Positions 922 through 16,665 of a DNA stretch of 64,000 nucleotides are shown here, in pieces. The position numbers were made by a program, and so were the translations under genes. Below the pieces are notes generated by a model, which ran no database searches, was not told the DNA's origin, and saw nothing but the letters and a program-made list of their open reading frames with translations. This DNA comes from Candidatus Poribacteria bacterium. Lineage in GTDB: Bacteria; Poribacteria; WGA-4E; JAJDTR01. Numbering within the stretch: the first letter of the stretch is position 1; each line of letters starts with the position of its first letter. The stretch covers positions 4,160,001-4,224,000 of the forward strand of contig CBDCTK010000002.1 of the NCBI GenBank assembly GCA_965222225.1. The letters are read 5' to 3'.

Positions 922-972
922 CAATCAATGTGACCAGTTTCAATCTGATGAATCAGATTGATGACTATTATT

Positions 973-1106: not shown

Positions 1107-1167
1107 TTGGCGCCAGTAGGGCGTGATTCGATACTGTTCAAATTCGTCGTATTCCGCTCTCGCCTTC

Positions 1168-2079
1168 TTACTTCCCAGCCTTATACCGCGCCACTGGACT
1201 CCGTTCCGACGGTGCCTCCCTCACATACCGCGCCGGCATCGTCGGCTCCTGCCACCGCCCCGCTCGTTGCACCTCCTTCACGCTTGCCCCGGCCTCTGCA
1301 AGCGACACCGCAGACCCGATACGAAGCGAGTGTCCGCTAATCAATCCCGTCACTCCCGCTTCCGCCGCCCGCCGCTGTATCGCCGCGCGCCCCCCCTTCA
1401 CCCCCAGCCGATCGTCAGTCACATGATTCTGGAAGCGTATCCTCCGGAACAAAGCCCCCGACGCAATCCCCGCTCTCGTTCGATACCGCTCTATCAACCG
1501 CCGTGTCGATTCACAGATATACAGATTCTCGCCCTGGTCCTCCCCGCTTGTCCTCTTGCCGTAGACCTGAAGCCCCTCGGCTCTAACATCCTCCACATCC
1601 ACTGCAACCGCCTCCGAGATGCGTAACAGGCAATCGCTCATCAGCCTAATCATGGCGGCATCACGGGTGCCCGCCGCGGTATCTGACGATTCCGCCGCCG
1701 CACACACCCGCTCCACTTCGTGCCACGTAAGCCCGTCTACCTGGCGCCGCCCGCGCCCTTTACCTTCGCCGCGGATATCAGACAATGCGCGAGCGGTGAT
1801 GTCCCCAACCACATTGCCAACCCCACGGTACTCCGCCATCCACTTCACCGCGGACACGACCAGCTTGATCGTCGCCGGCGATTTCCCCTGTGCATACAGA
1901 AACCTGATATATTCCGCCAGCACCGCATCCGATAGGGCACGTCCGTCTAGCCAAGCTTCCAGCTTGCGGCTCGCGTGCTCATACGCCTTGAGCGTGTTAT
2001 CCGCCACGTTTGCCCGAATCTCCTGCCCCGTACCCGCGGCGATTCGCAACCCCCTATCCGATTCCTTGCCTTGCTTCAT
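1168..2079 (-). CDS. Cre-like tyrosine recombinase/integrase
   Basis: RDAAMI..LLRISE (catalytic R), GHSLR (HxxR), GRW and ARYV (catalytic Y); N-terminal core-binding-like region (NTLKAYE...KSPATIKLVVSAV). Confidence 0.9.
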   Translation of the reverse strand: MKQGKESDRGLRIAAGTGQEIRANVADNTLKAYEHASRKLEAWLDGRALSDAVLAEYIRFLYAQGKSPATIKLVVSAVKWMAEYRGVGNVVGDITARALSDIRGEGKGRGRRQVDGLTWHEVERVCAAAESSDTAAGTRDAAMIRLMSDCLLRISEAVAVDVEDVRAEGLQVYGKRTSGEDQGENLYICESTRRLIERYRTRAGIASGALFRRIRFQNHVTDDRLGVKGGRAAIQRRAAEAGVTGLISGHSLRIGSAVSLAEAGASVKEVQRAGRWQEPTMPARYVREAPSERSPVARYKAGK

Positions 2080-2226
2080 GATAAACCCCTCGTCAGATTT
2101 ATACCACCGTTGCCATATTCATCGACCGCCCAAGCCGTCGAGCATAACTGGCACCCCAAGTGAACATGGCAACACGAATATCGTTACATACAGCCAGTGT
2201 TGAGGAATCTCGACCTTTCTGCCTTG

Positions 2227-2596
2227 GAGCCTGTTTGAAAAGTACAGTTTGTAGGGTGCGATCAAAGGAATGAATAATGACTCCGATAGAGATCCCCTGC
2301 GATCAAGCGAATGAATAATAAGCGATCAACTGAACGAATAGTGAAGGAGCAACTGACCGATAGGGAAGGCGGTAGAGATCCCATAGAAAGTCCTGATAGA
2401 GATCCTACCAGCCTCTAAAAGCCCCCAGAGTGGGATCAAGGGAGATCCAATGAGCGAATAGCGAATGCGATAGGGATCCCTGATAGAGACTGCGATAGAG
2501 ATCCTAACAGGTATGTAGCAGCCAACAATGAAAACATGAAAAAACTCTCTACAAATGACCAAAAATGGCTTTGCCACCGATTATTCAAACAGGCTC
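2227..2596 (+). mobile_element. IS5-family-like MITE copy A, expanded by nested 36-nt elements
   Basis: Terminal inverted repeats GAGCCTGTTTGAA / TTCAAACAGGCTC; right flank is TTA, the stop codon of the adjacent gene. Colinear with copy B (16094-16304) apart from inserted units at about 2260-2406 and 2434-2505 and loss of one internal segment. Confidence 0.85.
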
Positions 2597-3567
2597 TTAG
2601 AACACACCCTCCCTTACCATCGTTCGGTTCAACTTCTTCACCACCGCCGGCGTCACCGGATCGTTGTCCGGGAGGAATCCCTCTCCCTTCTTTAGTTTAA
2701 CAGCCGCAACACTGTCCAACTCAGCCAGCTTCTTAGCCCCTTGCACCGCCTTCAGATCGCCCCCGTAGTACTCGTACCAAGGCAGCTTCGCGTTTGTGTA
2801 ATCCTGAGCCGTCGGCGGCTTCCCTGGCGGCTCGCAACCCGTCACTTTGAGGAGCTCCACGCGCTATTCACGATATGAACGAAGCAGCGCGAGCCGGTCG
2901 ACGTGTCCCACGCATCGATGCCGTATTCGTCCTCGTATATCTCCTGCCGCATAAGACCGCCCGGCGCCAACCCCATCCGCGGTTCCTCGCGAAGTACATA
3001 GTAGTCTGCTCTGCTCAGGTTCTTATCAAGTGGCAGTTCCTCGTATATCGACCGCTTCATCGGATAGACAGCAATCTGGAGCCCGCCGTGCTCCGCCTCG
3101 CCCGTTAGCTGCTCCTCCGCCGTGAAACCCTCACCCAGCGGCATCGCCACGAACTGCCGAATTAGCCCCTTCTCCACGCAGAACCCGTCCAACCACGGTT
3201 GACCCGGCACCACCAAGTAATCCTGCCGCTCCCCGCTGAGCTCCTCCTCCCATGCCCCCCCGGTCACCGTGTTGACTTTGCCCGCTGCTATCTTCACCGC
3301 CATCGGATAGTCGCCGTGGAAACAGATCCACATCGCCTCCGCTTGATACATCGGGGTGAACACCCCGCCATGTTTCCTCCACGTTTCCGGCAAGTTATCC
3401 GGGTAGTCGTCCACTCGACTCAGCGGGAATCTCCCAAGCCCCGGCGGCAAATAATGTTTTCGGTTGTCGTCCGGAATCCGCAGCGTACGCTGGAATTCAA
3501 TCGCGAGCTCGGCAAATCCGTATATCTCCGGAAATCGAAATATAATCTAATCGTTTCTCAGTTCAAT
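2597..3567 (-). pseudogene. Conserved hypothetical protein (FQRTLRIPDD...LPPGLGRFPL family), disrupted
   Basis: Upstream frame reads IELRND*IIFRFPEI..IEFQRTLRIPDDNRKHYLPPGLG with an in-frame TAG at 3547-3549 and no ATG. A frameshift near 2860 splits ORFs 2842..3450 and 2597..2860. Confidence 0.8.
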
Positions 3568-4002
3568 AGTTTTTTTCCCGTTCCTAGTCCTATTAGCCAT
3601 AATCATAGACCTCTCTGTTTTTTAATTCCTGATGAGCAAAACACTTCAACACGTAATATGTATTATAACAGGATTTATATAACTTAACAACCGAAAACAT
3701 CAAGCCCTTTCCAATTCAGCCCCGCCGCCCTTGTAGCCCCTCTTCTACGGTCGCAATCCCCCGGCGGACGCGCCCGCTGTTCGTGGCGTGGGGTACGCTG
3801 CACACTGCTATCAAGCCAGCTAGCCGGCGAATACCGAGTGCGGTAGACATCCCCTCCAGCCGGCGCCGCGCAAATACGCCTAAGCAACGGGCAACGGCAA
3901 CCCTCGAAGCGATGCGGGCTGCTTTGGTGTCGTGCCGAGGCGCCGCCCTGCGCCACCAACTGATCGAACATATTGATGGATTGAAAAACGATAAAGCGAA
4001 TG

Positions 4003-4099
4003 GCCAACTGACTGGATAATGAAGGATCCACTGAGATCAACCGACTGATTAGGGAGGACGATAGTAGATCCTGCGCGATAGAGTTCCCATAGAGATTCC
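4003..4099 (+). repeat. Nested 36-nt elements in front of an AATCC..TTCRGACAA repeat
   Basis: CCAACTGACTGGATAATG..GATCC..GATCAACCGACTGATTAGGGAGGACGATAGTAGATCCT..GATAGAGTTCCC..ATAGAGATTCC. Confidence 0.7.
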
Positions 4100-4456
4100 A
4101 TGAATCCTAGTTCGGACAATCCCGTCCCCTTCCCCACTCTCCACCGCTCTCTCAAGTGCAAAAGATTTACGGAGTTGGTAGTTAGAGACTGGCAATATTG
4201 AACAAGCACGTATACGTATGAGTGGGAGTGTAGTTATTTTCTGACACCTGCACATAAACGTGCTATTATACGGTAAGTATCAAGAAGTTCATCCGCTATC
4301 AGGGAAGGGTGGCATACGATAACAGCACACGACACAACAGCGAATTTATTATAGCGCTTCTCTATTGGCTTAGGTATAGTATAATGGGGCGGTTGCAACA
4401 CAGTGGCGATTGATTCGATACATGCAACACATGAAGATAAAAGAAGGGATAAACCA

Positions 4457-6358
4457 ATGACACGCTTTATTTGTATCCTAGCCTTGCTCCTAGGCCTGAT
4501 GACATGGGTATACGCCCAACCCGTCAACATGCCCGACCCAAACCTACGCACCGCAGTGCGCGAATCTCTTGATCTTCCAAATGGCGCACCGATTACGCGT
4601 GATGCTATGCTTCAGTTGATTAAGCTTCGTCCTGGAAGCCGCGGCATTGAAAATCTATCCGGTGTGGAGTTCGCAAAAAACCTCAGAGAACTATCAATCT
4701 GGGGCAACCCCATAACCGATCTCAGTCCTATCGCCGGACTAACTAAGTTGGAACTGCTGTACATGTGGGGGACACCGATTTCGGATATTACACCACTAGC
4801 GAATCTGGCGAATCTGATAAATTTGCGTCTGAACTATTGCAACGTTGCCGATATAAGCCCAGTTGCACATTTGCTTAAACTTGAGAAACTGTCATTAGCC
4901 GGAAATGGGATCACCGACGTTGGACCTCTTGCCAACTTAACGCAACTCCGACTCCTCAACCTCGAAAACAATGGCATTGTGGATGTGCGTCCGTTGGCGG
5001 GCCTGCGTCGATTAGAAACATTAACAATAGAGGGCAACCGTATAACAGACCACAGTCCACTTGATGGATTGTCGTTGGAACACTTTACACATGACCTCGA
5101 AACGCCGTGCGACATGGCGCCGCTTCCTTTGGAGCCTCGTATAGAGAATAGAAACTTCCCCTCCCTCTTTTCCGCCTGGATCGATCGGAATAAATACTCG
5201 GCATACGATTTGATCTTCTGCTGCCCTCGGTTCGAGAGTTGGCTTGTTGAAACGGCCGACGGTTTTCAATTCCGTACCGCGCATTCATCGTGGGATGGAC
5301 CGGTTCAGATACGCGACGGCTACCTAGAACAAAACCCGACTATGGTATTTTTGCACGGACTATCTGTAATTTGGCATGAGCTGGACTCCCTGCCCGAAGA
5401 TTCTCCTTGGTGGCTGCGTGATGAACAAGGGAACATACTTCCAGCCTGGGATATGGGCTTAATGAATCTTAATCATCCGGGTTGGCAGCAGCGGATGATT
5501 GACATAGCGGCGACTATAGATCAATGCGGTTTGTACGACGGGATTTTCATCGACGGCTGGAGTGAATGGCATAACGAACGGCGCGGGCAACTACCGGGGC
5601 AGGTGGCTATTCTCAAAGGGATACGCGAAAGGGTGCGGGACGATTTTCTTATCATGGTGAACACAAATACCTGGACAGCACCGGTGTCGGCACCTTACAT
5701 CAACGGACTGTTTTTGGAATCCGGCTTTCCGGGCGATAGCAACTCACCTGAAGATCTTGAAGAACGTCTGTCGGAACTAGAGGATACGCTGAGATGGGCT
5801 GAGACCACACTGCTGGAGCCTCGAATCACCGGACTCGAAGGAAGCAACTACCGTGACGAACCGCCAGACAACCCAAAGAATATGCGGTGGATGCGGGCGA
5901 CTACCACTTTGGCGCTCACGTTTAGCGACGGTTATGTTGCTTTCCCGTTACGAGGAGGACCTTGGTACGATTTCTGGAATGCCGACCTCGGACGCCCCGT
6001 CGGAGAGACTTTGCAGCTCTATGAACACCGCCCAGGTCTCTACATCCGTGAATTCACGAACGGTTGGGCGGTATACAACCACAGCGGCGCGGCGCAGGTT
6101 GTGACATTGCCGGAAGATGTACAATCAGTAGCTAGCGGATTGAGCAACACGGAACATGCCGTGCTTAACCTGGACGGCGATATTTTTTTGCGGGTGACGC
6201 CGAAGAATCCAGCGGACGTGAACGGGGACGGGGTAGTGAATATCTTGGATTTGACGTTGGTGGCACAGGGGTTCGGCGGCGATCGACCGGGCGCCGATGT
6301 TAACGGCGACGGCGTTGTTAATGTGTTTGATCTTGTTCTCGTGGCAAATGAGTTTTAG
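4457..6358 (+). CDS. Secreted internalin-type LRR protein with putative glycoside-hydrolase-like TIM barrel and C-terminal dockerin
   Basis: Signal peptide MTRFICILALLLGL; PDPNLRTAVRE cap; 22-aa LRRs (L..L.L..N.I.D..PL..L); YDGIFIDGW motif; two DVNGDGVVNILDL dockerin repeats. Confidence 0.85.
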   Translation: MTRFICILALLLGLMTWVYAQPVNMPDPNLRTAVRESLDLPNGAPITRDAMLQLIKLRPGSRGIENLSGVEFAKNLRELSIWGNPITDLSPIAGLTKLELLYMWGTPISDITPLANLANLINLRLNYCNVADISPVAHLLKLEKLSLAGNGITDVGPLANLTQLRLLNLENNGIVDVRPLAGLRRLETLTIEGNRITDHSPLDGLSLEHFTHDLETPCDMAPLPLEPRIENRNFPSLFSAWIDRNKYSAYDLIFCCPRFESWLVETADGFQFRTAHSSWDGPVQIRDGYLEQNPTMVFLHGLSVIWHELDSLPEDSPWWLRDEQGNILPAWDMGLMNLNHPGWQQRMIDIAATIDQCGLYDGIFIDGWSEWHNERRGQLPGQVAILKGIRERVRDDFLIMVNTNTWTAPVSAPYINGLFLESGFPGDSNSPEDLEERLSELEDTLRWAETTLLEPRITGLEGSNYRDEPPDNPKNMRWMRATTTLALTFSDGYVAFPLRGGPWYDFWNADLGRPVGETLQLYEHRPGLYIREFTNGWAVYNHSGAAQVVTLPEDVQSVASGLSNTEHAVLNLDGDIFLRVTPKNPADVNGDGVVNILDLTLVAQGFGGDRPGADVNGDGVVNVFDLVLVANEF

Positions 6359-6510
6359 CCTCGTATATACACCGTCGGCCGCAGCCGCGCGCACTTCGTG
6401 AATTCACGCACGAACTTTAGCTGTTCACGCCGCTTTTTCAGGAATGCCAAATCTTTCGCCTTTTCTTTTTCGCGACGTTGAGCGTCTAATCCATCAACAG
6501 GAATGGCCAT
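6355..6510 (-). CDS. Small basic hypothetical protein (51 aa), below the ORF-track cutoff
   Basis: AGGAGG RBS 7 nt before ATG; MAIPVDGLDAQRREKEKAKDLAFLKKRREQLKFVREFTKCARLRPTVYIRG*; stop overlaps the LRR gene stop. Confidence 0.55.
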   Translation of the reverse strand: MAIPVDGLDAQRREKEKAKDLAFLKKRREQLKFVREFTKCARLRPTVYIRG

Positions 6511-6655
6511 CTTGCTAACCTCCTAAAATGTGTGCCATTAGAATAGCCAAGTAATCAGTTTAATCATAGGTAAACAACAACGGGAACAGCTAACATACGT
6601 AGAAAAGCGCAGAACCAGCCGGTTGGCCCACCTCCCGCCATCGCACCGCACAGCA

Positions 6656-6692
6656 GATCAAACGCCTTGACAATGACCGCGATAGAGTTCTC
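6656..6692 (+). repeat. Single degenerate 36-nt element
   Basis: GATCAAACGCCTTGACAATGACCGCGATAGAGTTCTC. Confidence 0.6.
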
Positions 6693-6743
6693 ATAGTGAT
6701 AGCGTCAGCATGAAAAGCGTCTTTGCTTCAGATTCCTACCAAC

Positions 6744-7070
6744 CTATTTCCTTACCATTACAATTGTATAGATCATCTCCTCTCCAGCCATGGTTGCAGA
6801 AAGATGAGTAAGGTCATAATTTTCGTATATTGGTAGATTGATCTCATTTTCAGCCGCAACGCGATTGGTCTCGACAAGCAACAAATATCGTCTATCCGTC
6901 TTCTCTGTGACTTGAGAAGACTCATCATGAAAGTGATATTTACCAGATGCCGAATCTATATGCCTTCCATCTCTATCCGTTCTCCCAGAATGAGAAAACG
7001 TGAAATCTGAAACGAAAATGATACAAGTAAGAAACGCTGCTATTACGAGCAACAACATCAAGATTCTCAT
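6744..7070 (-). CDS. Small secreted YHYH-domain protein
   Basis: GGAGGGG RBS before ATG at 7070; signal peptide followed by HSGRTDRDGRH...GKYHFH. Confidence 0.75.
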   Translation of the reverse strand: MRILMLLLVIAAFLTCIIFVSDFTFSHSGRTDRDGRHIDSASGKYHFHDESSQVTEKTDRRYLLLVETNRVAAENEINLPIYENYDLTHLSATMAGEEMIYTIVMVRK

Positions 7071-7223
7071 TTTTCCCCTCCATGAAAAGAGGGGCAACCC
7101 ACATAGGCTGCCCCACTGTTGAGGCAGTCCTACATGGCATAAACTCATTGCTCATGATAGGATCTCCCTTTGTTTTGTACTGACGCAGTACCTTTGCGCC
7201 CCCCGAATATCCATTCGGGATCA

Positions 7224-7252
7224 TTGACAGATATTTAGTTAGATGTTATAAA
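7224..7252 (+). promoter_or_regulatory. Sigma70-type promoter (rightward), likely driving an antisense RNA
   Basis: TTGACA-17nt-TATAAA with extended -10 TG; no ORF directly downstream, only hairpins. Confidence 0.6.
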
Positions 7253-7257
7253 AGCAA

Positions 7258-7380
7258 CGGGTGACGCAAGCGAGTTTCCCACTCGCGTACCTTTGCGTTG
7301 CCTATGTCGTTCCTCTGCTTGTAGGTATTCGCAGTACCTGCAGGCAAGAACGGCATTACATCAGTCGCTGAATCTGCCGA
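7258..7380. ncRNA. Putative structured leader/antisense RNA between convergent promoters
   Basis: Hairpins GACGCAA-GCGAG..CTCGC-..TTGCGTT and TGTCGTTC..TGCTTGTAGGTA-loop-TACCTGCAGGCA..GAACGGCA. Confidence 0.45.
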
Positions 7381-7385
7381 TGATT

Positions 7386-7415
7386 ATCATATACGGGTGT
7401 CACGGCTCATGTCAA
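7386..7415 (-). promoter_or_regulatory. Sigma70-type promoter (leftward) for structured leader and YHYH gene
   Basis: Minus strand TTGACA-18nt-TATGAT. Confidence 0.55.
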
Positions 7416-7524
7416 CTCAAAAAAATCTCCTTCTTTGCTGTCTAAAGGATGGGGGTAAGTTCAGTGCGATAGAGATCTCATACATGGCCCTTCCATCTTA
7501 ATCCTACAAGAGATGTCACTAAGC

Positions 7525-7680
7525 GAATCCTAACCCGCGTAATCCATTAATCTGTGTAATCAGCGATTCAGACAATCCCCTCTCCTCCCCATTTACCCCT
7601 CCCTACCCCCTGACCATCAAGCGAGTGATTGGCGAGTGATCAAAGGAGCGAATAGCGACTGCGATAGACAATCCCCTCAC
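7525..7680 (+). repeat. Empty AATCC-rich ..GATTCAGACAA repeat, followed by nested 36-nt elements
   Basis: AACCCGCGTAATCCATTAATCTGTGTAATCAGCGATTCAGACAA is the empty counterpart of 60863-60941. ATCAAGCGAGTGATTGGCGAGT-GATCAAAGGAGCGAATAGCGACTGCGATAGACAATCCC lies at about 7616-7676. Confidence 0.75.
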
Positions 7681-7728
7681 CTCCCTCCACTTCCCACGCT
7701 CACCCCAATGTAAAAAACTTATTAACGC

Positions 7729-7757
7729 TTGACAAATCCGTCCTAACATGATATAAT
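7729..7757 (+). promoter_or_regulatory. Perfect consensus sigma70 promoter upstream of terminase genes
   Basis: TTGACA(7729-34)-17nt-TATAAT(7752-57) with TG extension. Confidence 0.8.
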
Positions 7758-7878
7758 CCCCGATAGTTGCACCACGCGGCATTGATCCGCTTCCACAATT
7801 TCATAGGCATGCGCGCGCGTTCCACCCTAGACATGATATCCGGGAAACCGCGCTGAACCAAGTCTCACGCCTTCATTC

Positions 7879-7939
7879 AGCCCATTGGTGGCTTTACCTG
7901 TTGTCAATCAACAGAAAGCCATCAGTGGGCTTTTTTTTT
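7879..7939 (+). terminator. Long intrinsic terminator/attenuator in the terminase leader
   Basis: 17-bp stem AGCCCATTGGTGGCTTT/AAAGCCATCAGTGGGCT (2 G-U pairs) plus inner CTGTTG/CAACAG stem, then T9. Confidence 0.8.
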
Positions 7940-8055
7940 GGTAGTCGTGGCTGGCCGTAAAACTCCCGTGGTTAGCGATCAGCAGCGCCAAAAGGATATA
8001 TTGGTTCTTACCGGCCGCTGTCCGCCGGCAACTGCTTTATATGGAGAGTTAGAAT

Positions 8056-8589
8056 ATGTGCGAAACAAACGAAACACTCAAAATCTCACACGAAGACCAC
8101 CTAGATGCAATAGTGAACCGCGTCTACGAAAGCTGGGGGACCTCGCAGGTTGTTGATTCCTGGATGGAGAAATATCCCCGGTGGGCACATCTTGGTCGCA
8201 AGATATTTCGAGATGCCGCACGCGTTTCTAATCCTCGGTCTAACAAATTTTCAACCGAATACCGCGAAATATATGAGCGCACATTAGCGCACTATCGTGA
8301 AGAACGCCGCGCACTACTTGAAGCCATAGCTAGCAAGGCTTCAAGCGCAATTTCGCAGATTGTTGAAAGTGTGCGCTCAAACGTTACCAACGTCCCTATT
8401 GACAACGCCCACGACCTGCTTCATCTCTCTCGCGCTATCAACCCCCTTAAGGACATAGCGCTAAAGGCCTTACAAGAGATAGATTATGACCATAGTAACT
8501 CCCATGCCCGCAATACTAACCGAGATGCAGTCGATCGGCTGCTCCGCTACAAAGACTTGGCTGACGAACTCACGGAAGATGAAGGATGA
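8056..8589 (+). CDS. Hypothetical helical protein, candidate terminase small subunit
   Basis: GGAG RBS; 177 aa; overlaps the start of the large terminase. Assignment is by position and size only. Confidence 0.55.
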   Translation: MCETNETLKISHEDHLDAIVNRVYESWGTSQVVDSWMEKYPRWAHLGRKIFRDAARVSNPRSNKFSTEYREIYERTLAHYREERRALLEAIASKASSAISQIVESVRSNVTNVPIDNAHDLLHLSRAINPLKDIALKALQEIDYDHSNSHARNTNRDAVDRLLRYKDLADELTEDEG

Positions 8590-10285
8590 TGAAGCGTTCT
8601 GCCAACTCAGAGCCCATGCCGGCTACGTCTACCCCAATCTCTTTGTCGATTACTACATCAGAAACACCAGCTACCAACTGCTCGCGCTCAAAGATTTCCA
8701 CATCGAAATCCTCAACGCCATCAAACCGGGCGTGTACGGTAAGCAAATAAACGTCCAAGCACCGCGCGGCACCGGCAAGACGACCCTCGTTAACGGTCTA
8801 ATCCCTCTTTGGAGGATCTGCTACAAACACTTCGATCTCGCCATGGATAGACAGCCGGAGGAGTTTATCCTCATTGTCGGTCGTAACGAACGTGCAGCGC
8901 GCCAACGCATAACCGAAATCCGCGACGTTCTCGAACACAACCCCCTCATCCGACGCGACTTCGGCGACCTCGTCGGTTCCCCGTGGACAAAAACCGAAAC
9001 CGACACCCGCAACGGCATCGGGCTGAGACCTCTCGGACGCGGCTCATCCCCCCGCGGCGCCCTCCTCGGCGATGTCCGTCCGACGTTGAAACTGTGTGAC
9101 GACATCGAAGATCCAAAACGCTGCCTCAATCCCGACCTCCGAGAAGAAGACAGGGACTGGTTCATGACCGACTTCATGTACGCCGGCGACCTGGGGAGCA
9201 AACACTCCAACACCATCATCGTCGATACCGTAAAACACCCCGAATCCCTCTCCGAACACCTCCGCGCCCTCCCCGGTTGGCGGACACTGCGGTTTGAAGC
9301 GGTGATGCATCCTGAAGACATCTACCACCCCACCGCCGAACGCCTCTGGAAACAGTGGGACGGATTCTATAGCGATACAACCCTTGACGACGACGAACGC
9401 GAAGAGAACGCGAATGCGTTCTACGCGAAACATCAAGATGAGATGTCCGGCGGCGTGAAGATGTTGTGGCCGGAAAAACTGTCGTACATCCACGTTCGCA
9501 AAGAGATTCTCGAACGCGGCTATCACCGCGTCATGCGCGAACTCCAAAACGACGCGCGCGACCCCGCGATGTCGCTCTTCAAGATGGATGGTGCTATCAC
9601 GTTCTCCGTCATCAAGGAAGGCTTTCGCCGCAGCGACGGGCATGTGGTTCCGTGGCACGACATCGGCGGATTCACCACCTACCTCGACACCATGGGCGGA
9701 CGCGATGCGGTTGCCAACAGCTACGCCTGCGCTGTCGTCATGGCGTGGGAACCGCTGCCCGGCGGCAGTTCCATGAACCCCGACTCCCTCTCCGGCGTAA
9801 ACGGATATATCCTGTCGGCGTGGATGGATCGCGTCGCATTGACCGAGCAAATGGAGCACGCCATCCTCCTCGCACAGCGCGCCGAGGCGATGTTGGCGCC
9901 CGCGTACCCGAAATCCCACTTCGTCTGCGAACAGCGGCCCGACAAAGACGGCACAATAAAGATGTCAACCGACCATGCGTTCCGTGCGATGAACGAGCGC
10001 CACCGCTTTGAACGCAGAATCATGTATCACAAACAGCACCAGAACAAAGAAGATCGAATCGGTACGCTTGAACCCGCGATAGCAAACGGCTGGCTCGCGT
10101 TTAACGAGAAAGACTTGCCGGGCGAGTTTTGGAAACAGTTTCGCCAATTCCCAACCGCCGACCATAACGACGCACCCGACGCCGTCCAAGGCGCCTGTCG
10201 CTCTCGCATCACGACCACCGCGCAACAACGCGTCGATCTATCTGCAGCTCGTCGATTCAACCGCAACCCCGTCGTGAGACTGTAA
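8579..10285 (+). CDS. terL: Phage terminase large subunit
   Basis: Walker A QAPRGTGKTT, GRGSSPRG, Walker B LCDDIED, C-terminal nuclease motif FRQFPTADHNDAPDA. Likely ATG at 8579. Confidence 0.9.
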   Translation: MKDDEAFCQLRAHAGYVYPNLFVDYYIRNTSYQLLALKDFHIEILNAIKPGVYGKQINVQAPRGTGKTTLVNGLIPLWRICYKHFDLAMDRQPEEFILIVGRNERAARQRITEIRDVLEHNPLIRRDFGDLVGSPWTKTETDTRNGIGLRPLGRGSSPRGALLGDVRPTLKLCDDIEDPKRCLNPDLREEDRDWFMTDFMYAGDLGSKHSNTIIVDTVKHPESLSEHLRALPGWRTLRFEAVMHPEDIYHPTAERLWKQWDGFYSDTTLDDDEREENANAFYAKHQDEMSGGVKMLWPEKLSYIHVRKEILERGYHRVMRELQNDARDPAMSLFKMDGAITFSVIKEGFRRSDGHVVPWHDIGGFTTYLDTMGGRDAVANSYACAVVMAWEPLPGGSSMNPDSLSGVNGYILSAWMDRVALTEQMEHAILLAQRAEAMLAPAYPKSHFVCEQRPDKDGTIKMSTDHAFRAMNERHRFERRIMYHKQHQNKEDRIGTLEPAIANGWLAFNEKDLPGEFWKQFRQFPTADHNDAPDAVQGACRSRITTTAQQRVDLSAARRFNRNPVVRL

Positions 10286-10372
10286 AACTATTGCGCAACA
10301 CATAATCTATTGTATTCTTACACATTACTCATTACGGAGGTATTCATACGTAAGGTGAGATTAACCCACTTC

Positions 10373-10560
10373 GCCCTGTAGGAGCGATCAACCGAGCGAA
10401 TAGCGATCAACTGAGCGATTAGCGAAGGCGATAGAGTTCCTCATGTCTGTAGAGAGGAAACGCGCACAATCTTCGCGCTCCAGCTATATGTAGGGTGGAA
10501 TCAACCGAGCGAATAGCGAGGGCGATAGAAAATCCCGCGCGATAGAGATCCTACCAGCCT
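10373..10560 (+). repeat. Two REP-like palindromes, each filled with nested 36-nt elements
   Basis: GCCCTGTAGGAGC[units 10386-10441]CATGTCTGTAG and GTAGGGTG[units 10498-10552]ACCAGCCT. The empty form GTAGGGTGCGCACTGCGCACCAGCCT is at 16118. Confidence 0.8.
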
Positions 10561-10842
10561 TTGAAAGGGCAACGGGCGACAGGCTGTATTGCACTACATG
10601 TTGCCGCCGACTTTTTCTATGCTCAACCAAAAAGACCAGATGGTTAAAATCTCCTCCATTTTCTTCAACGCTTGATTGACACCATCTGTTGTGCCACTTA
10701 AATGTACAAGTCAAGCTAAAGCTCTTCGCAGCCTTTTCGCTTGTCAATATTATCATGCTTTGCTATAATCGAAACCCCCAAAACAAGGCATTGTCAGATA
10801 CATAACCCAAGTTTATCAAACAAAATTGAAAGGAGTAATATC

Positions 10843-12153
10843 GTGAGGAAACTACGTATCATCATCCCGTGCTTAGTTATTGCGTTGTGTATGATGACTT
10901 TATCTGCGGACGCCGATGAAACGTTAACCATTGCGTGGGCAGAGTGGCCGCCAGCGGATTATCTGCAGGAATTGTCCAAGGATTTTACGGAAGAAACAGG
11001 GATTACGGTTGAAGTCGTTAAAATTCCCTGGCCCAGTTTTCAGGATCAGATTTTCACGGCATTTGTCGGCAAGAGTAACCGCTACGATATTGTCATAGGT
11101 GATAGTCAGTGGCTTGGAAGGAATTCTGTGGGAGGGCACTATGTTGAGTTGACGGATTGGATTAACGATAATATCGCGGTAGACGAAATCTACGGCCCGG
11201 CAATGACCGCCTTTGCCGAATATCCGAAGGGGAGCAAAGAGTATTGGGCACTTCCCGCCGAGGTGGACGCCAACGGCTACGTCTATCGTACAGACCTATT
11301 TAACGACCCGCAGGAAATGAATGCGTTCAAAGCCAAATACGGCTACGAGTTAGCTCCACCCAAGACCTACAAAGAGATGAGAGATGTCGCTGAATTCTTT
11401 ACCAGACCGCCGGATCTGTACGGGATAGCGACCTACTTCAGCAAAGAATATGATGGCATTACAATGGGGTTCCAGCAGGTGATGTGGTCATTTGGGGGAT
11501 CATACGGCGATCCGGAGACGCACAAGGTCGATGGTTTTATCAACAGCGAGGATTCCATCAAGGCATTGGAATACTATATTGAACTCACCAAATTTTCTCC
11601 ACCCGATGCTCCAAATTACTATTGGCAAGAAACACTGGATGCCTATAAATCGGGAAAAGTTGCAATGGCGATGGACTATTTCGCGTTCTTCCCCGGCGCG
11701 TTAGATCCGGGGCAGAATCCGATGTATTACGATAAAAGTGACTTCTTCATTGCACCGGCCGGTCCCAAAGGGCATTACATTAGCATCGGCGGGCAAGGGA
11801 TGTCGGTTTCGTCCTACTCAAGAAACAAAGATACCGCCAAGAAGTACATGAAGTGGTTCATGCAGAAGCCGGTACAGGAGAAGTGGGCGATACTTGGCGG
11901 GCTTACACCCCACAAAGAGGTTTTGCAATCCGACACCTTCTTGAATGCCACGCGGTTCAATAAGGCATTTGCGGCGAGCTGCCCATATTTGCGCGATTTC
12001 TGGGCAGTGCCGGAATACGCGGAGCTATTGGAGGCTTGTCAGACAAACTGGAACGCTGCTATTGTAGGTTTGAAATCGGCGAAGGACGCCCTGGATGAAA
12101 TTGCCAGGAAGCATGAAGCCATCTTTGAGGATGCTGGCTACTACGACGAATAA
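10843..12153 (+). CDS. Sugar ABC transporter substrate-binding protein (CUT1)
   Basis: AAGGAG RBS, GTG start, signal peptide; FTEETGITVEV, YRTDLF and PPKTYKE motifs. Confidence 0.92.
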   Translation: MRKLRIIIPCLVIALCMMTLSADADETLTIAWAEWPPADYLQELSKDFTEETGITVEVVKIPWPSFQDQIFTAFVGKSNRYDIVIGDSQWLGRNSVGGHYVELTDWINDNIAVDEIYGPAMTAFAEYPKGSKEYWALPAEVDANGYVYRTDLFNDPQEMNAFKAKYGYELAPPKTYKEMRDVAEFFTRPPDLYGIATYFSKEYDGITMGFQQVMWSFGGSYGDPETHKVDGFINSEDSIKALEYYIELTKFSPPDAPNYYWQETLDAYKSGKVAMAMDYFAFFPGALDPGQNPMYYDKSDFFIAPAGPKGHYISIGGQGMSVSSYSRNKDTAKKYMKWFMQKPVQEKWAILGGLTPHKEVLQSDTFLNATRFNKAFAASCPYLRDFWAVPEYAELLEACQTNWNAAIVGLKSAKDALDEIARKHEAIFEDAGYYDE

Positions 12154-12177
12154 ACTCGGAATCAAGGACAAACTGTT

Positions 12178-12203
12178 AAGGGCAGAATCACCGCTCTGCC
12201 CTT
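12178..12203 (+). terminator. Intra-operon stem-loop after the binding-protein gene
   Basis: AAGGGCAGA-8nt loop-TCTGCCCTT. Confidence 0.6.
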
Positions 12204-12223
12204 CTCTATTCTTTGGGACATAG

Positions 12224-13129
12224 ATGCCACCCACCCGTTTTTCGCGCGGATTAAGCGACTACCAAATCAAGATGATGTTCATCATGCCGACGATGATTTT
12301 ACTCATCTTGATGAATATCTTCCCGCTTCTCTGGTCGCTTTATCTAAGTTTCCACCGATACAAGGCCTCAATGCCAGGGCGACCGCCGAAGTTTATCGGG
12401 GTTCAGAACTACGCTCGCCTGCTTTCAGATCCGGAAATATGGGGATATTTCCAGACAACCGCGTATTTCGTGCTGCTCGCCGTTACCGCTCAATTCCTCA
12501 TCGGCTTTGGGTTAGCGCTGCTACTCAATCGTGAGTTCCGCAACAAGGGATTAATCACAACGCTTCTGCTGTTGCCGATGATGCTCTCGCCTGTTGTCGT
12601 CGGACTATTTTGGCGTTTTATCTTGGCTTCCGACAGATCCGGACTCCTCAACTTTTTTCTAAGCCCATTCCTAAGTGCGCCTATCGGTTGGACAACGGAC
12701 CCCAAGATTGCGATGATTGCCGTTGTGATTGTCGATACTTGGATGTGGTCTCCATTCATGATGTTGATCGCTTTAGCCGGGCTATCTGCTGTCCCGAAGT
12801 ATCTTTACGAAGCTGCGGACGTTGATCGCGCCTCAAATTGGTTCAAGTTTCGATGGATAACGTTACCATTGGTTTCACCGCTATTGCTTATTGCCCTGCT
12901 ATTTCGGACAATGGATGCGTTCAAGATGTTTGATATCGTGTATGTGCTTACCAGAGAAGGCGGGCCCGGAACGGCTACAGAAACAGTGTCCATGAATCTC
13001 TACAAACTCGCATTTCGGAACTATAACACCGGCAAGGCGTGTGCCATGGCGTACATTCTCCTAATTATCATTGTCGCTTTAAGCAACATCTACGTGAAAT
13101 ATCTGAACAAGGTCAAGGCGGAAACCTAA
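12224..13129 (+). CDS. Sugar ABC permease (MalF/UgpA-like)
   Basis: FIGVQNY; EAA loop LYEAADVDRAS; TM helices. Confidence 0.92.
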   Translation: MPPTRFSRGLSDYQIKMMFIMPTMILLILMNIFPLLWSLYLSFHRYKASMPGRPPKFIGVQNYARLLSDPEIWGYFQTTAYFVLLAVTAQFLIGFGLALLLNREFRNKGLITTLLLLPMMLSPVVVGLFWRFILASDRSGLLNFFLSPFLSAPIGWTTDPKIAMIAVVIVDTWMWSPFMMLIALAGLSAVPKYLYEAADVDRASNWFKFRWITLPLVSPLLLIALLFRTMDAFKMFDIVYVLTREGGPGTATETVSMNLYKLAFRNYNTGKACAMAYILLIIIVALSNIYVKYLNKVKAET

Positions 13130-13134
13130 AAATC

Positions 13135-14304
13135 ATGAGGGACGTTGGACGCAAGCATTTGAGTCATTACATCATACTCGCTGTAATCGGGATTGCAGTC
13201 ATCGTATATCTCATGCCAATCTATTGGATTGTTGCCACGTCCCTGAAAGCACCAGGCGACATTGTGACGAAGATGCCCAAGTTTCTGTTCCGGTTAACAT
13301 TAGACAATTATCGGAAATTGATGCCGGCTGAAGTGCCCGGAAAAACTTATATGTTCCTTGTCGAAGCGTTGGTAGGCGCTCTCCTCTTCGCGCTGCCGGG
13401 GCGACTATGGTCAAGATCCCAGACCCCCACTATTAGACAACACGCCGCATTGTTATTGAACCGTCTTTTGGCACTCACCTGCCTCTACATTGTCGTTTCC
13501 ACGCTGAATTACCACTTCTTACTGTTGGCAGTTTATGTGGGAGCCGCATATTGCGTAATTTCCAAAGCCGTGGCAAAGGAGCACCAGGTGCGTTTCGGTT
13601 TCATCAATGTGTCGGTGTTTGCGCTGGTTGCCATCTGTATATCTCTGGCTGACGGCGGATCAAAGTATTTTCACCAACTGTTAAACAGTCTCATTGTCGG
13701 GGTTGGCAGTACCATCCTAGCAGTTGGCCTTGGAACATTTGCCGCTTACGCATTTTCGAGGTTCAAAACAGCGGGAAAAGAGGATTTGCTCTTCTTTATT
13801 CTCAGTACACGTATGCTACCGCCAGTGGTCGTAGTGATCCCTATCTATTTGATGTATAGCGCACTCGGATTGCGCGACACACACGCCGGGCTTATCCTGC
13901 TGTATACCACTTTCAATGTGTCCTTTGCTGTCTGGTTGATGAAGGGTTTCATTGATGAAATCCCGAAAGAGTACGAAGATGCGGCTCTTGTCGACGGATA
14001 CACCCGCTTCCAAACCTTCATCAAAGTCGTCCTACCTCAATCCGTGACAGGAATTGCCGCAACCGCCGTTTTTTGTCTAATCACTGCATGGAATGAGTTT
14101 GCGTTTGCGCTAGTCTTGACGGAGGTGGGTGGCAAGGCTGTAACCGCGCCGCCGTCAATTACGAGTGCGACAGGATCCGGGGGCGTGGACTGGGGTAAAA
14201 TTGCAGCGGCGACATTTGTATTTTTATTACCGGTTGCAGTGTTTACATTCCTAATGAGGAAACATCTCTTACGCGGCATTACCTTTGGAGCAGTAAAGAA
14301 ATAA
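13135..14304 (+). CDS. Sugar ABC permease (MalG/UgpE-like) with a hydrophobic insertion
   Basis: PIYWIVATSLK; EAA-type YEDAALVDGYTR; about 110 extra hydrophobic residues between TLDNY and LLNS. Confidence 0.9.
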   Translation: MRDVGRKHLSHYIILAVIGIAVIVYLMPIYWIVATSLKAPGDIVTKMPKFLFRLTLDNYRKLMPAEVPGKTYMFLVEALVGALLFALPGRLWSRSQTPTIRQHAALLLNRLLALTCLYIVVSTLNYHFLLLAVYVGAAYCVISKAVAKEHQVRFGFINVSVFALVAICISLADGGSKYFHQLLNSLIVGVGSTILAVGLGTFAAYAFSRFKTAGKEDLLFFILSTRMLPPVVVVIPIYLMYSALGLRDTHAGLILLYTTFNVSFAVWLMKGFIDEIPKEYEDAALVDGYTRFQTFIKVVLPQSVTGIAATAVFCLITAWNEFAFALVLTEVGGKAVTAPPSITSATGSGGVDWGKIAAATFVFLLPVAVFTFLMRKHLLRGITFGAVKK

Positions 14305-14365
14305 TCAACTTGGCAATTAACAAACCGCTGTGGCATAGCTGATTGGAGAACATGTCGGTTTCACT

Positions 14366-15481
14366 ATGGCATCCGTAAAGCTAGAGAACCTGACAAAGCG
14401 TTTCGACGACGTTATCGCACTTGACGGCATCAACCTTGATGTTGCCGACCAAGAATTCTTCGTGCTGCTTGGCCAAACCGGTGCGGGCAAAACCACAGCG
14501 TTACGCTGTGTGGCCGGGCTTGAACATGCCGAAGAAGGGGGAATCTTTTTTGATAGCGAGCGGATTGACGACCTTTCCCCTGCGGAGCGTGATGTCGCCT
14601 TTGTGTTTCAATCTCACATTCTCTATCCGCACCTCACCGTCTACGAAAACATGGCATTTCCGCTACACCCGCGTAAACTGTCGACTGACGAGATCGACAA
14701 ACGCGTCAAAGAGATTGCCGCTATGTTACATATCGAACCCCTTTTGGGACGAAAACCCGGTCAATTGAGCGGTGGTGAAACACAGCGTGTCGGGCTTGGA
14801 AGAGCGATGGTTCGTCGTCCGAGATTGTTCTTGATGGACGAACCTATCTCCAACTTGGATGCGAAACTTCGCAGCGAGATGCGCGCCGAAATCAAGTGGA
14901 GACAACGGCAGTTGGGCACGACGATGTTGTACGTCACGCATGACCAAATTGAAGCAATGTCGATGGCGGATCGAGTGGCTGTGTTAGAGGAAGGGAGTAT
15001 TCAACAGATTGGTACACCGATAGACATTTACAATTCCCCCGCCAATCTGTTTGTCGCCGGTTTCATCGGCAACCCGAGCATGAATCTCCTTTCCTGTCAC
15101 CTTGTCGCTGATGGAGATCAATTCTTCGGGAGACTTGCGGGTGGGTTCCAATTCTTGATTACTGACTCCGAAACTGTTCGTACCTTGACTAACTCAGCCA
15201 AGGATGCACGCGTGGTTCTCGGCGTGAGGCCTGAAGATGTGATTGTAAACCATCAAGCGATGCCCGGTGCCACATCCATAGAGATCTACAGTTTTGAACC
15301 CTTGGGTGCGGAGACCATTGTCGAACTAATAATTGGAAAGAATGAGCAAGGTGCAAATCTCATTCTAAGAACGCGAGCGTCGGCTACCCTAAATGTCGAA
15401 ATTGGACAAACGCTCAATATGGCGTTTGTACCTGAACGACTCCATTTCTTCTATCGCGATACTGGACAGGCGATTTGTTAA
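14366..15481 (+). CDS. Sugar ABC ATPase (MalK-like)
   Basis: GQTGAGKTT, LSGGE, LMDEP, YVTHDQ, TOBE-like C-terminus. Confidence 0.93.
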   Translation: MASVKLENLTKRFDDVIALDGINLDVADQEFFVLLGQTGAGKTTALRCVAGLEHAEEGGIFFDSERIDDLSPAERDVAFVFQSHILYPHLTVYENMAFPLHPRKLSTDEIDKRVKEIAAMLHIEPLLGRKPGQLSGGETQRVGLGRAMVRRPRLFLMDEPISNLDAKLRSEMRAEIKWRQRQLGTTMLYVTHDQIEAMSMADRVAVLEEGSIQQIGTPIDIYNSPANLFVAGFIGNPSMNLLSCHLVADGDQFFGRLAGGFQFLITDSETVRTLTNSAKDARVVLGVRPEDVIVNHQAMPGATSIEIYSFEPLGAETIVELIIGKNEQGANLILRTRASATLNVEIGQTLNMAFVPERLHFFYRDTGQAIC

Positions 15482-15617
15482 TAGTCAATCTTGGCAAGTC
15501 TTGATGCACCATGAGACCTCATGCAAAATACTCAGCGTTTAGGTATCTATGGAGGCCCATGCCATTGGGTTGCCTTTACTATATGGTATGAAAAACGATT
15601 TCTGCGGAGATAATCAG

Positions 15618-16665
15618 ATGAAAAGATTACTGCTACTTTGGTTGAGCGTTTCGCTCGTTTTTGTATTGTTTTCGTCGAATACTTTCGCGCAGGACTATAC
15701 CTGATGGAATTTGCCTGAAGGTGCCAAAGCACGATTAGGTAAGGGTGGGCTGTCTGGGAATATCGCGTACTCGCCAGAGGGTCTCGCCTTGCAGTCGCGG
15801 CAACTATTGGTATCTGGCTATATGACGCTCATAGTGGCGCCGAAATTAACCTTTTCAGGGGCCAAGCGCTCACTAAAACCGTAGCATTTAGCCCAGATGG
15901 TTACATCCTCGCTGGTGGGAGCGGTGACGGTACCATCCGTCTGTGGAGTGTGGAAACAGGTGCACACATCCAGACACTCACCGGGCACACCCGAGGTATC
16001 AAAAAGATTGCGTTCAACCCAGATGGTAACACGATCGTGAGTGGAAGTGCGGACAAAAGCATCGCCTTTGGGATGCGAATACAGGCACTCTTAGAGCCTA
16101 TTTGAAAAGTACAGTTTGTAGGGTGCGCACTGCGCACCAGCCTCTAAAAGCCCCGGAGGGGCGGAAGGTGTGTGGAAACACCGAAACCCCGTGCAACCTA
16201 AGCCCCAGCGGGGTGACAGGTATATAGCGGGCAAATTCACAAACATGAAAAACTGTCTTCAAATGACTAAAAATAGCTTTGCTGCCGACTATTCAAACAG
16301 GTTCTTAAACAGACACTTACAGGGCATAGCGATGGGGTGAATAGTGTGGCGTTTAACCCAAACGGCGCGTGCTTGCCAGTGGGAGTTTTGATACAACCAT
16401 CCGTCTATGGGATACGAAAAAAGGCACGCTCGAGCGAACACTCACCGAACATACTGACAAGGTAAGTAGTGTCGCGTTTAGTCCAGACGGTAGTGCCCTT
16501 GCCAGTGGTAGTCATGACAATACAATTCGTCTTTGGGATACTGTCACGCAGACGACAAAACGCACGCTTAGTGGACACACATGGTGGGTTTGAAGCGTGG
16601 CGTTCAGCCCGGACGGTAGCACAATCGCCAGCGCGAGTCATGATGGGACAGTACTATTGTGGTGA
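15618..16665 (+). pseudogene. Secreted WD40-repeat protein, disrupted by stops, frameshifts and a MITE
   Basis: Fragments [44 protein letters not shown][MITE][26 protein letters not shown]. Confidence 0.88.
16094..16304 (+). mobile_element. IS5-family-like MITE copy B (211 bp, unfilled), with TTA target duplication
   Basis: TTA-GAGCCTATTTGAA...TTCAAACAGGTTC-TTA. Removal restores the WD40 frame GTL-KQTLTGH. Contains GTAGGGTGCGCACTGCGCACC and AAGCCCCNGNGGGG palindromes. Confidence 0.92.

Follow-up and report, generated by a model that had tools for sequence, protein, structure and literature searches.

To our knowledge, terminases are normally found only within phages, gene transfer agents or satellites. 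The stretch of Poribacteria DNA analysed here (64,000 nucleotides, hereafter the window) therefore raises a key question: does an intact terminase gene pair that is followed by neither portal nor capsid genes represent the debris of a prophage, or is it a packaging module that is maintained in its own right? The initial annotation proposed a stand-alone module behind a structured leader. The comparisons with related genomes presented below support this proposal, with a conserved leader that is probably gated by a terminator.

Structure of the cassette

Window positions 7729-10285 correspond to a cassette of ~2.6 kb consisting of a promoter, a leader, a terminator, ORF177 and TerL. All of the components originally listed for this interval (a consensus promoter, a structured leader, a hairpin with T9, a 177-aa ORF and an intact TerL) were confirmed, and the further stem described downstream of the terminator is present in the sequence. 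The features are as follows:

7616..7675, with more copies at ~10380-10530, no strand assigned: genome-wide interspersed repeat (blastn), outside the cassette
7703..7728, + strand: 5' edge of cassette homology; the sequence upstream is the genome-wide interspersed repeat
7729..7757, + strand: sigma-70 promoter TTGACA-17-TATAAT, 12/12 positions, with an extended -10 TG and a conserved spacer (-35 TTGACA at 7729-7734, 17-nt spacer, -10 TATAAT at 7752-7757)
7765..7939, + strand: leader RNA of ~175 nt, its start deduced from the promoter
7879..7939, + strand: intrinsic terminator, a 17-bp hairpin (7879-7930) followed by T9 (7931-7939)
7953..8016, + strand: second stem, GGCCGTAA (7953-7960) / TTACCGGCC (8008-8016), between the terminator and the ORF177 start
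8056..8589, + strand: ORF177, TerS-like partner, 177 aa, with a GGAGAG ribosome-binding site at 8043-8048
8486..10285, + strand: TerL, large terminase, 599 aa, matching phrog_38 (E 1.5e-53, residues 47-591)

A CCCCAATGT box located ~20 nt 5' of the -35 element is kept in most genus copies (MAFFT alignment of 20 leaders). Searches with the promoter 29-mer, allowing up to 6 mismatches, recovered this genome's four cassettes only, with 0 matches in 2 Mb of shuffled sequence, and no second promoter-like site was found between the 7729-7757 promoter and the ORFs. A scattered regulon using the exact 29-nt promoter was not detected, as no other gene in this genome has it; this confinement to the cassettes speaks against a switch shared with other genes here.

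The interspersed repeat is present in at least 134 copies in the genome (blastn). As originally described, TerL is followed not by portal or capsid genes but by copies of this repeat and a sugar-type ABC operon. The unit at this ABC site is at most 4.4 kb long, lies between genes conserved with genome G002 and contains no integrase. The integrase at window positions 1168-2079 is a separate module that is located elsewhere in sister genomes, and an integrase common to copies A and D was rejected as a part of the cassette for being such a separate module. No tRNA gene was found in window positions 1-20000. The idea of a terminase acting as a transposase was also dropped: the cassette ends show neither terminal repeats nor target duplications, and conservation across species is seen at some sites.

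TerL and its small partner

Comparison of 20 genus copies favours 8486 as the TerL start, since every one of them begins at this column, where Pro and LI are also conserved; the Met at 8579, by contrast, varies among them. TerL had no Pfam family at E 0.01 and no match among PDB sequences (phmmer). In an alignment of 44 copies, P, R and K of the motif PRGxGKT, which we take to be Walker A, are invariant, with the second G and the next Thr nearly so, and the Asp-Asp of LKLCDD, presumably Walker B, is invariant as well. The same is true of D370, E451, D531 and D534 (numbered as in the 568-aa form), which we assume by analogy to be the catalytic acids of an RNase H-like nuclease. Substitution rates across relatives fall in the purifying range, with a median dN/dS of 0.139 for TerL (range 0.053-0.283, 190 pairs; dS up to ~2) and 0.226 for the TerS-like proteins within types (33 pairs). 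TerL has evidently kept its ATPase and nuclease motifs intact. Its best relatives in viral contigs show at most 33% identity (IMG/VR), and none exceeds 60% in GenBank phages.

ORF177 and TerL overlap by 104 nt in different frames, and a small + strand ORF abuts TerL at 37 of 44 loci. One of these positional equivalents, type c9, matches the TerS family phrog_4102 (E 9.5e-11). ORF177 itself had no match among Pfam and PHROG profiles, TerS families included, and its comparison with the c9 TerS alignment gave a probability of 0.1 (hhalign); its relatives are restricted to Poribacteria and lack a Pfam domain. The nearest named clusters in the ESM Atlas (Terminase_5, DUF2280 and Phage_Mu_Gp27; scores 0.90-0.91, with a low shared-feature count) are a weak lead towards TerS families. 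In the AF2 model (pLDDT 75.5), four short N-terminal helices are followed by long helices at residues 67-109 and 118-147. Foldseek returned nothing at E <1 for this model, and the VIA-align matches to the TerS structures 2ao9 (Z 4.8), 4xvn (4.4), 7uxe (4.0) and 2cmp (3.7), which appear among many HTH proteins, are under the tool's stated noise level.

Copies of the cassette and their exchange

Another important question is whether the locus is peculiar to one strain. This Poribacteria genome has four intact copies, with TerL amino acid identities of 100, 92, 86 and 82%, and one TerS-only remnant. Cassette matches were detected in 18 of 41 related genomes, including eight of the nine other genomes of the genus (2-8 each) and 4/4 genomes of a genus from another family; some copies in sister genomes are broken. 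Sister species carry cassettes at matching sites, so the locus is not strain-specific. Nor do close homologues lie in complete prophages: among sampled relatives with more than 35% identity, most lack a neighbouring portal, and those that have one are five genus copies that close a head cluster (see below).

In five lineages, the TerL stop marks the exact end of cassette homology between lineages. Genomes G000, G002 and G005 have a cassette at the ABC site (a broken copy in the last), whereas the site is empty in G001, G003 and G009, and matching chromosomal sites carry different cassette lineages in different species. TerS type co-varies with TerL clade, while the genus copies show 79-92% identity in TerL versus 13% to 93% in the small subunit. 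A 1.6-kb stretch comprising the leader, TerS and the 5' end of TerL is 97-100% identical between two species, one gapped window excepted, and its flanks are only 84-87% identical in the same two species. Moreover, TerS is 100% identical at two sites of one genome, and the leader reaches 99% identity where TerS shows only ~80%. Such mosaic similarity makes it possible to state that cassette copies recombine and that, judging by these comparisons, they are kept and exchanged by sponge-symbiont bacteria.

This pattern could also be produced by a selfish minimal satellite, a pac-terS-terL unit that lacks an integrase, is packed in helper capsids and enters by homologous recombination through its flanks. 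The variable presence at the ABC site, the site-swapped lineages in which TerS type follows TerL clade, the nearly identical 1.6-kb stretch within more divergent flanks, the broken copies, the TerS-only remnant and the integrase-free unit all agree with such an element. However, gene conversion among resident copies also fits the pattern, as the TerS sequences shared by two sites of one genome indicate, and the element has no close viral-contig relative, the best being the ≤33% noted above. We consider this reading rather unlikely, although it overlaps with the explanation preferred below and the two are not mutually exclusive.

A head cluster in sister genomes and its loss here

The initial annotation raised the possibility of a dispersed system resembling a gene transfer agent (GTA), with portal, capsid and tail genes elsewhere in the genome. 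A portal relative occurs once per genome in 8/9 sister genomes, and in seven of these eight it is followed, 5.5-18 kb further along the same strand, by a TerL copy. In 7/9 sister genomes, a podovirus-like head cluster ends with one of the cassettes, in the order capsid candidate, structural protein, internal virion protein, portal, several genes, leader, TerS and TerL. Relatives of the capsid candidate and of two adjacent genes were found upstream of the portal in all four genomes examined, and PHROG matches identified the structural protein (E 3e-6) and the internal virion protein (E 1.3e-11); tail genes were not recognised in the sister head clusters. Small proteins of 74, 211, 216, 210 and 175 aa are also encoded there. 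Upstream of the capsid operon of the cluster, the terminase-leader terminator hairpin recurs two or three times, with 83-84% identity to the terminase leader over ~158 nt in three of four genomes and 69% in the fourth. This arrangement traces the cassette family back to the packaging operon of such a podovirus-like cluster.

In the genome studied here, which is 94.9% complete in two contigs, no portal or capsid gene was found within 9 kb of the pair or elsewhere. The absence of the portal rests on protein queries and on the profiles Phage_portal, SPP1_portal and phrog_156; genome searches with Portal_Mu and P22_portal were uninformative, as the Portal_Mu control was silent and P22_portal missed the portal-bearing genome G001. 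Twelve head-cluster proteins of G001 had no match in this genome at E 1e-5. The sole relic of the cluster is 70 aa of the gene that follows TerL (C2:2001977-2002186), located beside syntenic flank genes, and the head cluster has evidently been deleted from this genome. Thus, the GTA-like proposal is supported insofar as sister genomes have a cassette within a head cluster whose capsid operon bears the same hairpin, but the cluster is lost here, and of the unlinked structural genes that had been envisaged, only an orphan HK97-type capsid fragment was found (230 aa, C2:561243-561935). A second genus (4/4 genomes, one portal query), where 5-8 cassettes occur, likewise yielded no portal, with intact cassettes present. 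Since intact cassettes occur in this genome and in the second genus without detectable head genes, they are probably independent of any resident head cluster, a point against the explanation preferred below.

Could the cassette simply be a decaying prophage remnant, functionless today? The loss of the head cluster, the TerS-only remnant, the orphan capsid fragment and the broken sister copies are what decay would leave behind. On the other hand, none of the four copies is broken, dN/dS stands at 0.14 for dS values of up to ~2, the catalytic residues are all kept, the terminator covaries (see below) and the cassette end falls exactly at the TerL stop in every one of the five lineages. A recent remnant, which had been offered as the simple alternative, is rejected because of the four intact copies, this dN/dS, the matching sister sites and the end of homology at the TerL stop, and we regard decay as very improbable.

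The leader and its terminator

The leader accompanies the gene pair at the level of nucleotide homology in at least 12 genus copies, and a conserved box, ACCGCGCTGAAC, is visible in the alignments at 7847-7858. The fold of a 295-nt leader segment has z = -2.87, with 0 of 200 shuffles as good. Rfam families were not found in the leader; the lone Rfam match is a chance snoRNA-like similarity within the ORF177/TerL coding overlap. The terminator scores 106.7 bits with covariance model R1. Its T-run is kept in 20/20 genus copies, and RNAalifold analysis of 11 copies predicted 19 pairs in the hairpin, eight of them with compensatory changes on both sides. Among cassettes with only 35-58% TerL identity, the order of promoter, ~180 nt and hairpin with T9 is clearest at L034, L041 and L054, and a hairpin with a T-run is also present at L035, L036, L043 and L046. 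A conserved hairpin and U-run thus lie between the promoter and the genes, as in leaders of the antitermination type. For the second stem, partial nucleotide conservation was seen in L018, L029, L003 and L022.

In contigs from RNA libraries (four runs, two studies), pieces of ORF177/TerL occur at depth 3-13 and neighbouring genes at 12-80, figures from which starts, ends and levels are not readable and for which DNA carry-over or paralogues are also possible sources; none of these contigs spans 7755-7905.

The promoter and terminator might instead delimit an independent small-RNA gene, with TerS-TerL expressed, if at all, in some other way. A discrete unit of ~175 nt with a conserved box and loop would suit such a gene, as would a leader that is up to 99% identical beside a TerS of ~80%. 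Nevertheless, the leader always accompanies the gene pair, there is no alternative promoter-like site before the ORFs, and the hairpin also occurs directly 5' of the capsid gene and of other TerS genes. A separate small-RNA gene thus appears hardly credible.

Test for an association with defence genes

An anti-phage factor had also been suggested; tests for a link between the cassettes and defence genes were negative. PADLOC gave no match for ORF177 or TerL. Specific defence hits were obtained for 12/110 ORFs near cassettes versus 10/110 in random regions of this genome, that is, without enrichment; the comparison covered 110 of 250 ORFs near 41 cassettes and 110 of 128 ORFs from 20 random regions, with generic ABC, protease and HEAT matches removed from both sets.

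These negative results count against interference with phages, in which a variable TerS would recognise the DNA of related phages or compete for procapsids, leaving phage DNA cut or unpackaged. The combination of a conserved TerL (79-92%) and a variable small subunit (13% to 93%) nonetheless resembles the diversification of specificity subunits, intact cassettes persist in genomes without head genes, and a terminator gate would silence a dangerous nuclease before infection. We hold interference as the main role to be possible but rather improbable, on a par with the selfish satellite.

A possible mechanism and its significance

The explanation that we prefer, and to which we give about an even chance, is that the cassettes are antitermination-gated packaging modules with a switch common to head genes. 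In this scheme, the hairpin would be the switch shared by head genes and cassettes, and transcription from the constitutive-looking promoter would halt at the terminator unless an antitermination factor acted. This hypothetical factor could be supplied by the resident head cluster or by a related infecting phage; once it was present, TerS and TerL would be produced alongside heads, each TerS variant would select its own DNA, and TerL would cut that DNA and pump it into capsids. In the present genome, the cassettes would be workable only with capsids from an incoming relative of the ancestral phage. Captured capsids would then be diverted to host DNA, which amounts to transduction, with phage interference as a side effect. 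A broader and more tentative version, which we think less probable than the gated module itself, is a distributed Poribacteria packaging system with one domesticated head cluster, exchangeable TerS-TerL cassettes and one terminator switch, in which the cassettes of headless genomes seize the capsids of infecting relatives.

The significance of the locus lies in a packaging cassette of two genes that has multiplied, passes between species and is under selection, and whose gate is common to capsid genes, yet which survives in genomes without capsid genes. If cassettes load DNA into capsids, uncultivated sponge symbionts would have a new way of transferring genes or of interfering with phages, and the cassettes would offer a natural example of swapping of the DNA-selection subunit of a packaging motor. 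If the distributed system is real, its targeting modules would plug into a common machine for gene transfer. A full-text literature search, judged by titles and the beginnings of abstracts, revealed nothing on orphan or stand-alone terminase cassettes, Poribacteria included, among the papers listed.

Comparison with known systems

The closest protein relationship is with the terminases of the phrog_38 lineage, those of the Mu-like Bacillus phage BalMu-1, Paenibacillus phages and D3112-like Pseudomonas phages, which are 25-27% identical over 90-94% of the length. They belong to the same protein family and likewise have a small gene upstream, but they sit within complete phage genomes.

Regarding control, the lambdoid late operon has a constitutive promoter, PR', and a terminated 6S leader of ~190 nt, and Q antitermination opens the late genes, terminase included. 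The cassette is similar in its consensus promoter with a conserved spacer and in the short terminated leader directly 5' of packaging or capsid genes. Unlike in the lambdoid case, neither a Q-like gene nor a qut-type pause site was recognised here, and recognition may reside in the conserved hairpin.

PICIs bring along an integrase as well as replication and regulatory genes, but of the terminase they encode TerS only and borrow the TerL of the helper. The cassette unit, in contrast, is at most 4.4 kb long, lacks integrase and replicase genes and specifies both terminase subunits. In SaPI/PICI satellites and in lateral transduction, an own terminase specificity subunit redirects helper capsids to own and neighbouring host DNA (PMC12829572). 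The cassette resembles these satellites as a chromosomal element with its own putative terminase specificity subunit, which would likewise redirect capsids to such DNA.

Multi-locus GTAs such as RcGTA (PMC5026251) likewise keep phage-derived head and packaging genes in the chromosome, with several unlinked loci seemingly under one control, as appears to be the case here. A further likeness to GTAs is that sister genomes show signs of vertical retention at one locus; a difference is that the present genome is without head genes, and no tail genes were seen. RcGTA has one terminase, located within its main cluster, whereas these Poribacteria have 2-8 scattered cassettes of the terminase operon, which recombine and differ in their small subunits.

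Architecture of the window cassette

The window cassette is composed of the following elements:

7729-7757: sigma-70 promoter (TTGACA, 17-nt spacer, TATAAT), a perfect match with an extended -10 TG
after the promoter: leader of ~175 nt, closed by a hairpin and T9
7879-7930: 17-bp hairpin, the terminal part of the leader
7931-7939: T9 run, directly 3' of the hairpin
7953-7960 / 8008-8016: second stem, between T9 and GGAGAG
between the second stem and ORF177: GGAGAG ribosome-binding site
8056-8589: ORF177, the 5' partner of TerL
8486 (start): TerL, 599 aa, matching phrog_38 (E 1.5e-53)

The consensus promoter, the structured leader ending in a terminator and the intact TerL reported in the initial annotation were all borne out by the sequence and the phrog_38 match; a profile search gave no Pfam match for TerL, and no second promoter-like site was found between the promoter and the ORFs. 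The TerL start is most likely at 8486, with a 104-nt overlap with ORF177, because all 20 copies of the genus begin at one alignment column with conserved Pro and LI residues. The Met at 8579 is unconserved in this alignment (n=20).

Downstream of TerL lies a sugar-type ABC operon, and the repeats on both sides of the cassette belong to a single genome-wide interspersed repeat present in at least 134 copies in G000, the genome carrying the window. This repeat is 55-60 nt long (GATCAA..GAATAGCGA..GCGATAGA..), occupies 7616-7675 and about 10380-10530 in the window and, counted by eye, lies no more than ~150 nt past the TerL stop in ~13 of the 20 genus cassettes.

Distribution and selection

Is the pair a scrap of a phage, as the simplest alternative would have it, or part of something larger? 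Against the first reading, the G000 assembly (5.70 Mb, 2 contigs, 94.9% complete) contains four intact TerS-like/TerL pairs (copies A-D; TerL identity 100, 92, 86 and 82%; ORF177 identity 100, 93, 29 and 50%), and matches were detected in 18 of 41 related genomes; the window pair is a member of a family. The closely related proteins on record bear the label Candidatus Poribacteria. Matches were found in 8/9 other genomes of the genus (2-8 each), in all four genomes of a genus from another family (5-8 each, 35-58% identity) and in 3/7 genomes of a third genus (~33% identity). Close relatives were absent from IMG/VR (best 33% or less) and from GenBank phages (25-27%). Between copies A and B, nucleotide homology covers 2.8 kb; it begins ~500 nt before ORF177 and ends with the TerL stop. 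A single ORF177-only remnant without TerL, in two pieces, is located at C2:2388068-2388771; an IS1595-family transposase lies ~2 kb upstream of it and a signal peptidase gene ~100 nt downstream.

Forty further loci were taken at ±9 kb, and all ORFs were clustered. The sole neighbour kept throughout was a small plus-strand ORF abutting TerL (37/44 loci), which falls into several unrelated-looking types, one of them matching a PHROG TerS family (E 9.5e-11). Five loci are linked to a head cluster, three are distant relatives bearing a portal gene, and 36 are orphans.

The proposed dN/dS analysis gave a TerL median of 0.139 (range 0.053-0.283; 190 pairs among the 20 genus copies, dS 0.3-2) and a median of 0.226 for the small ORFs (33 pairs, compared within types). 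Across 44 copies there is no variation at the Walker A Lys, at the Walker B Asp-Asp or at four acidic positions in the nuclease half. Some copies in other genomes are broken, indicating cassette turnover.

The leader and its terminator

The T-run is present in 20/20 cassette leaders of the genus, and 8 of the 19 predicted hairpin pairs show compensatory changes among the 11 copies without a loop insertion. The remaining nine leaders (L003, L017, L019, L020, L022, L024, L026, L030 and L031) carry an insertion of ~110 nt in the terminator loop, rich in GGTCACTGG-like repeats, whose distribution cuts across the TerL lineages. A 29-mer covering the promoter with its conserved spacer matches all four G000 cassettes at ≤4 mismatches and, in a whole-genome scan at the same threshold, nothing else in G000. 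Cassettes of the other family (TerL 35-58%) have the same layout, with a consensus promoter, ~180 nt and a strong hairpin plus T9, most clearly at L034, L041 and L054. No Rfam family matched the leader.

A covariance model combined with motif and ORF scans placed the hairpin element at three further positions in G000. A second leader-gated cassette type and a site of the capsid-operon type were recognized:

C2:692940-694539, minus: second cassette type, copy 1; hairpin and T9, then a 164-aa TerS
C2:5623779-5625380, plus: second cassette type, copy 2; hairpin and T9, then a 164-aa TerS
C2:2936599-2938395, minus: capsid-operon-type hairpin and T-run, then, ~350 nt on, a 432-aa ORF

The 164-aa TerS at C2:5623973 matches phrog_6299 (E 3.7e-18), and the other was judged its paralogue by inspection of the sequence. 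Each is coupled to a protein of 310-317 aa, which takes the place of TerL and belongs to a Poribacteria-only family (39 clusters) without a Pfam domain. The 432-aa ORF resembles PKD-domain proteins encoded within or next to the head cluster in the sister genome G005.

Cassette sites and exchange

The genes flanking the cassettes downstream are unremarkable core genes (ABC transporter, nuoABC, a nuoF-like gene, uppS). The cassette sites of G000 are also occupied in sister species, though one site often carries different TerL lineages in different species. The TerL tree comprises five genus lineages, which covary with the type of small ORF, and between lineages no homology extends past the TerL stop codon. 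Identity at the nuoA site is 83% for TerL and 91-97% for the flanks; at the nuoF site it is 92% for the cassette and 83-88% for the flanks. Cassette identity profiles are mosaic, so cassettes recombine both among genomes and inside a single one: two species with flanks of 84-87% identity share a 1.6-kb stretch (leader, small ORF and 5' end of TerL) at 97-100%, one gapped window excepted, and in one genome the small ORFs of two sites are 100% identical.

The site beside the ABC operon carries a cassette in G000, G002 and G005 (broken in the last) and none in G001, G003 or G009, and synteny breaks at 10724-10726 in 5/5 comparisons. Some 1.7 kb before ORF177 lies an LRR-dockerin gene that G002 keeps at this position; therefore, the unit at this site is ≤4.4 kb and lacks an integrase. 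The gene (4403-6358) encodes a 651-aa protein of a large paralogous family, with leucine-rich repeats and GHL15 glycosyl-hydrolase-like and dockerin domains. The tyrosine integrase at 1168-2079, together with a neighbouring ORF of about 200-330 aa, makes up a 2.5-kb module (1163-3624), which also occurs at unrelated positions of four sister genomes (74-81% identity) and beside copy D, and is probably a mobile unit separate from the cassette. The segment 6669-7355 (ORF134, minus strand) shares 89% identity with the DNA immediately before another cassette, in G009, and 79% with DNA of the unoccupied ABC site in G001; it resembles a roaming fragment with a tendency to lie beside cassette sites.

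The head cluster and its loss

In the three relatives of ~33% identity, a P22-like portal lies 3' of TerL (Pfam E 1.8e-10; phrog_156 E 7.6e-15). Searches with this portal revealed a 36%-identical, single-copy relative in 8/9 sister genomes, followed in 7 of these 8 by a same-strand TerL 5.5-18 kb downstream, and none in G000 or the four second-genus genomes. The podovirus-like head cluster spans ~18 kb in G001 (L168+L031), G002 (L026+L169), G003 (L170+L019) and G005 (L021+L171). In G001, its genes lie on one strand, a short ORF excepted, in this order:

417-aa capsid candidate
278-aa ORF, then 74-aa ORF
331-aa ORF, PHROG structural protein (E 3e-6)
717-aa ORF, whose G005 counterpart matches internal virion protein (E 1.3e-11)
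one short minus-strand ORF
211-aa ORF, then the portal
five further ORFs
leader, small ORF, TerL, then 527-aa ORF

This order is unusual in that the capsid candidate precedes the portal and the terminase comes last. Two or three copies of the cassette terminator hairpin stand ahead of the capsid gene; over ~158 nt, their identity to the terminase leader is 83-84% in three of four genomes and 69% in the other. The cassettes are therefore scattered copies of the head cluster's packaging operon and bring its control element with them.

The earlier suggestion of a dispersed GTA-like system is upheld in part: one cassette is linked to the head cluster in sister genomes, but G000 has lost the cluster. 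None of 12 G001 head-cluster proteins matched G000 at E 1e-5, proteins of the distant portal-bearing loci matched nothing there but TerL, and the 527-aa gene survives as a 70-aa remnant (C2:2001977-2002186) beside syntenic flank genes. An assembly gap may be considered instead of loss, the assembly being 94.9% complete. The suggested search for unlinked head genes recovered only an orphan 230-aa HK97-type capsid fragment (C2:561243-561935; Pfam Phage_capsid, E 7.5e-15), around which no further phage genes were recognised.

Possible function

A role in anti-phage defence lost its main prop when tested: matches to specific defence models were obtained for 12/110 sampled neighbour ORFs near cassettes versus 10/110 from random regions, and PADLOC matched neither ORF177 nor TerL. 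Contigs from RNA libraries reach ORF177 and TerL at low depth and were not counted as evidence of transcription. Four lines of evidence mark ORF177 as a putative TerS: where it lies, the coupling to TerL, a helical structural model and weak language-model hints at TerS families; profile and fold searches left this assignment unconfirmed. We propose that the terminator would be overcome by a putative antitermination factor, either produced along with the heads or supplied by a related phage, that the TerS variants would then choose the DNA and that TerL would load it into capsids.
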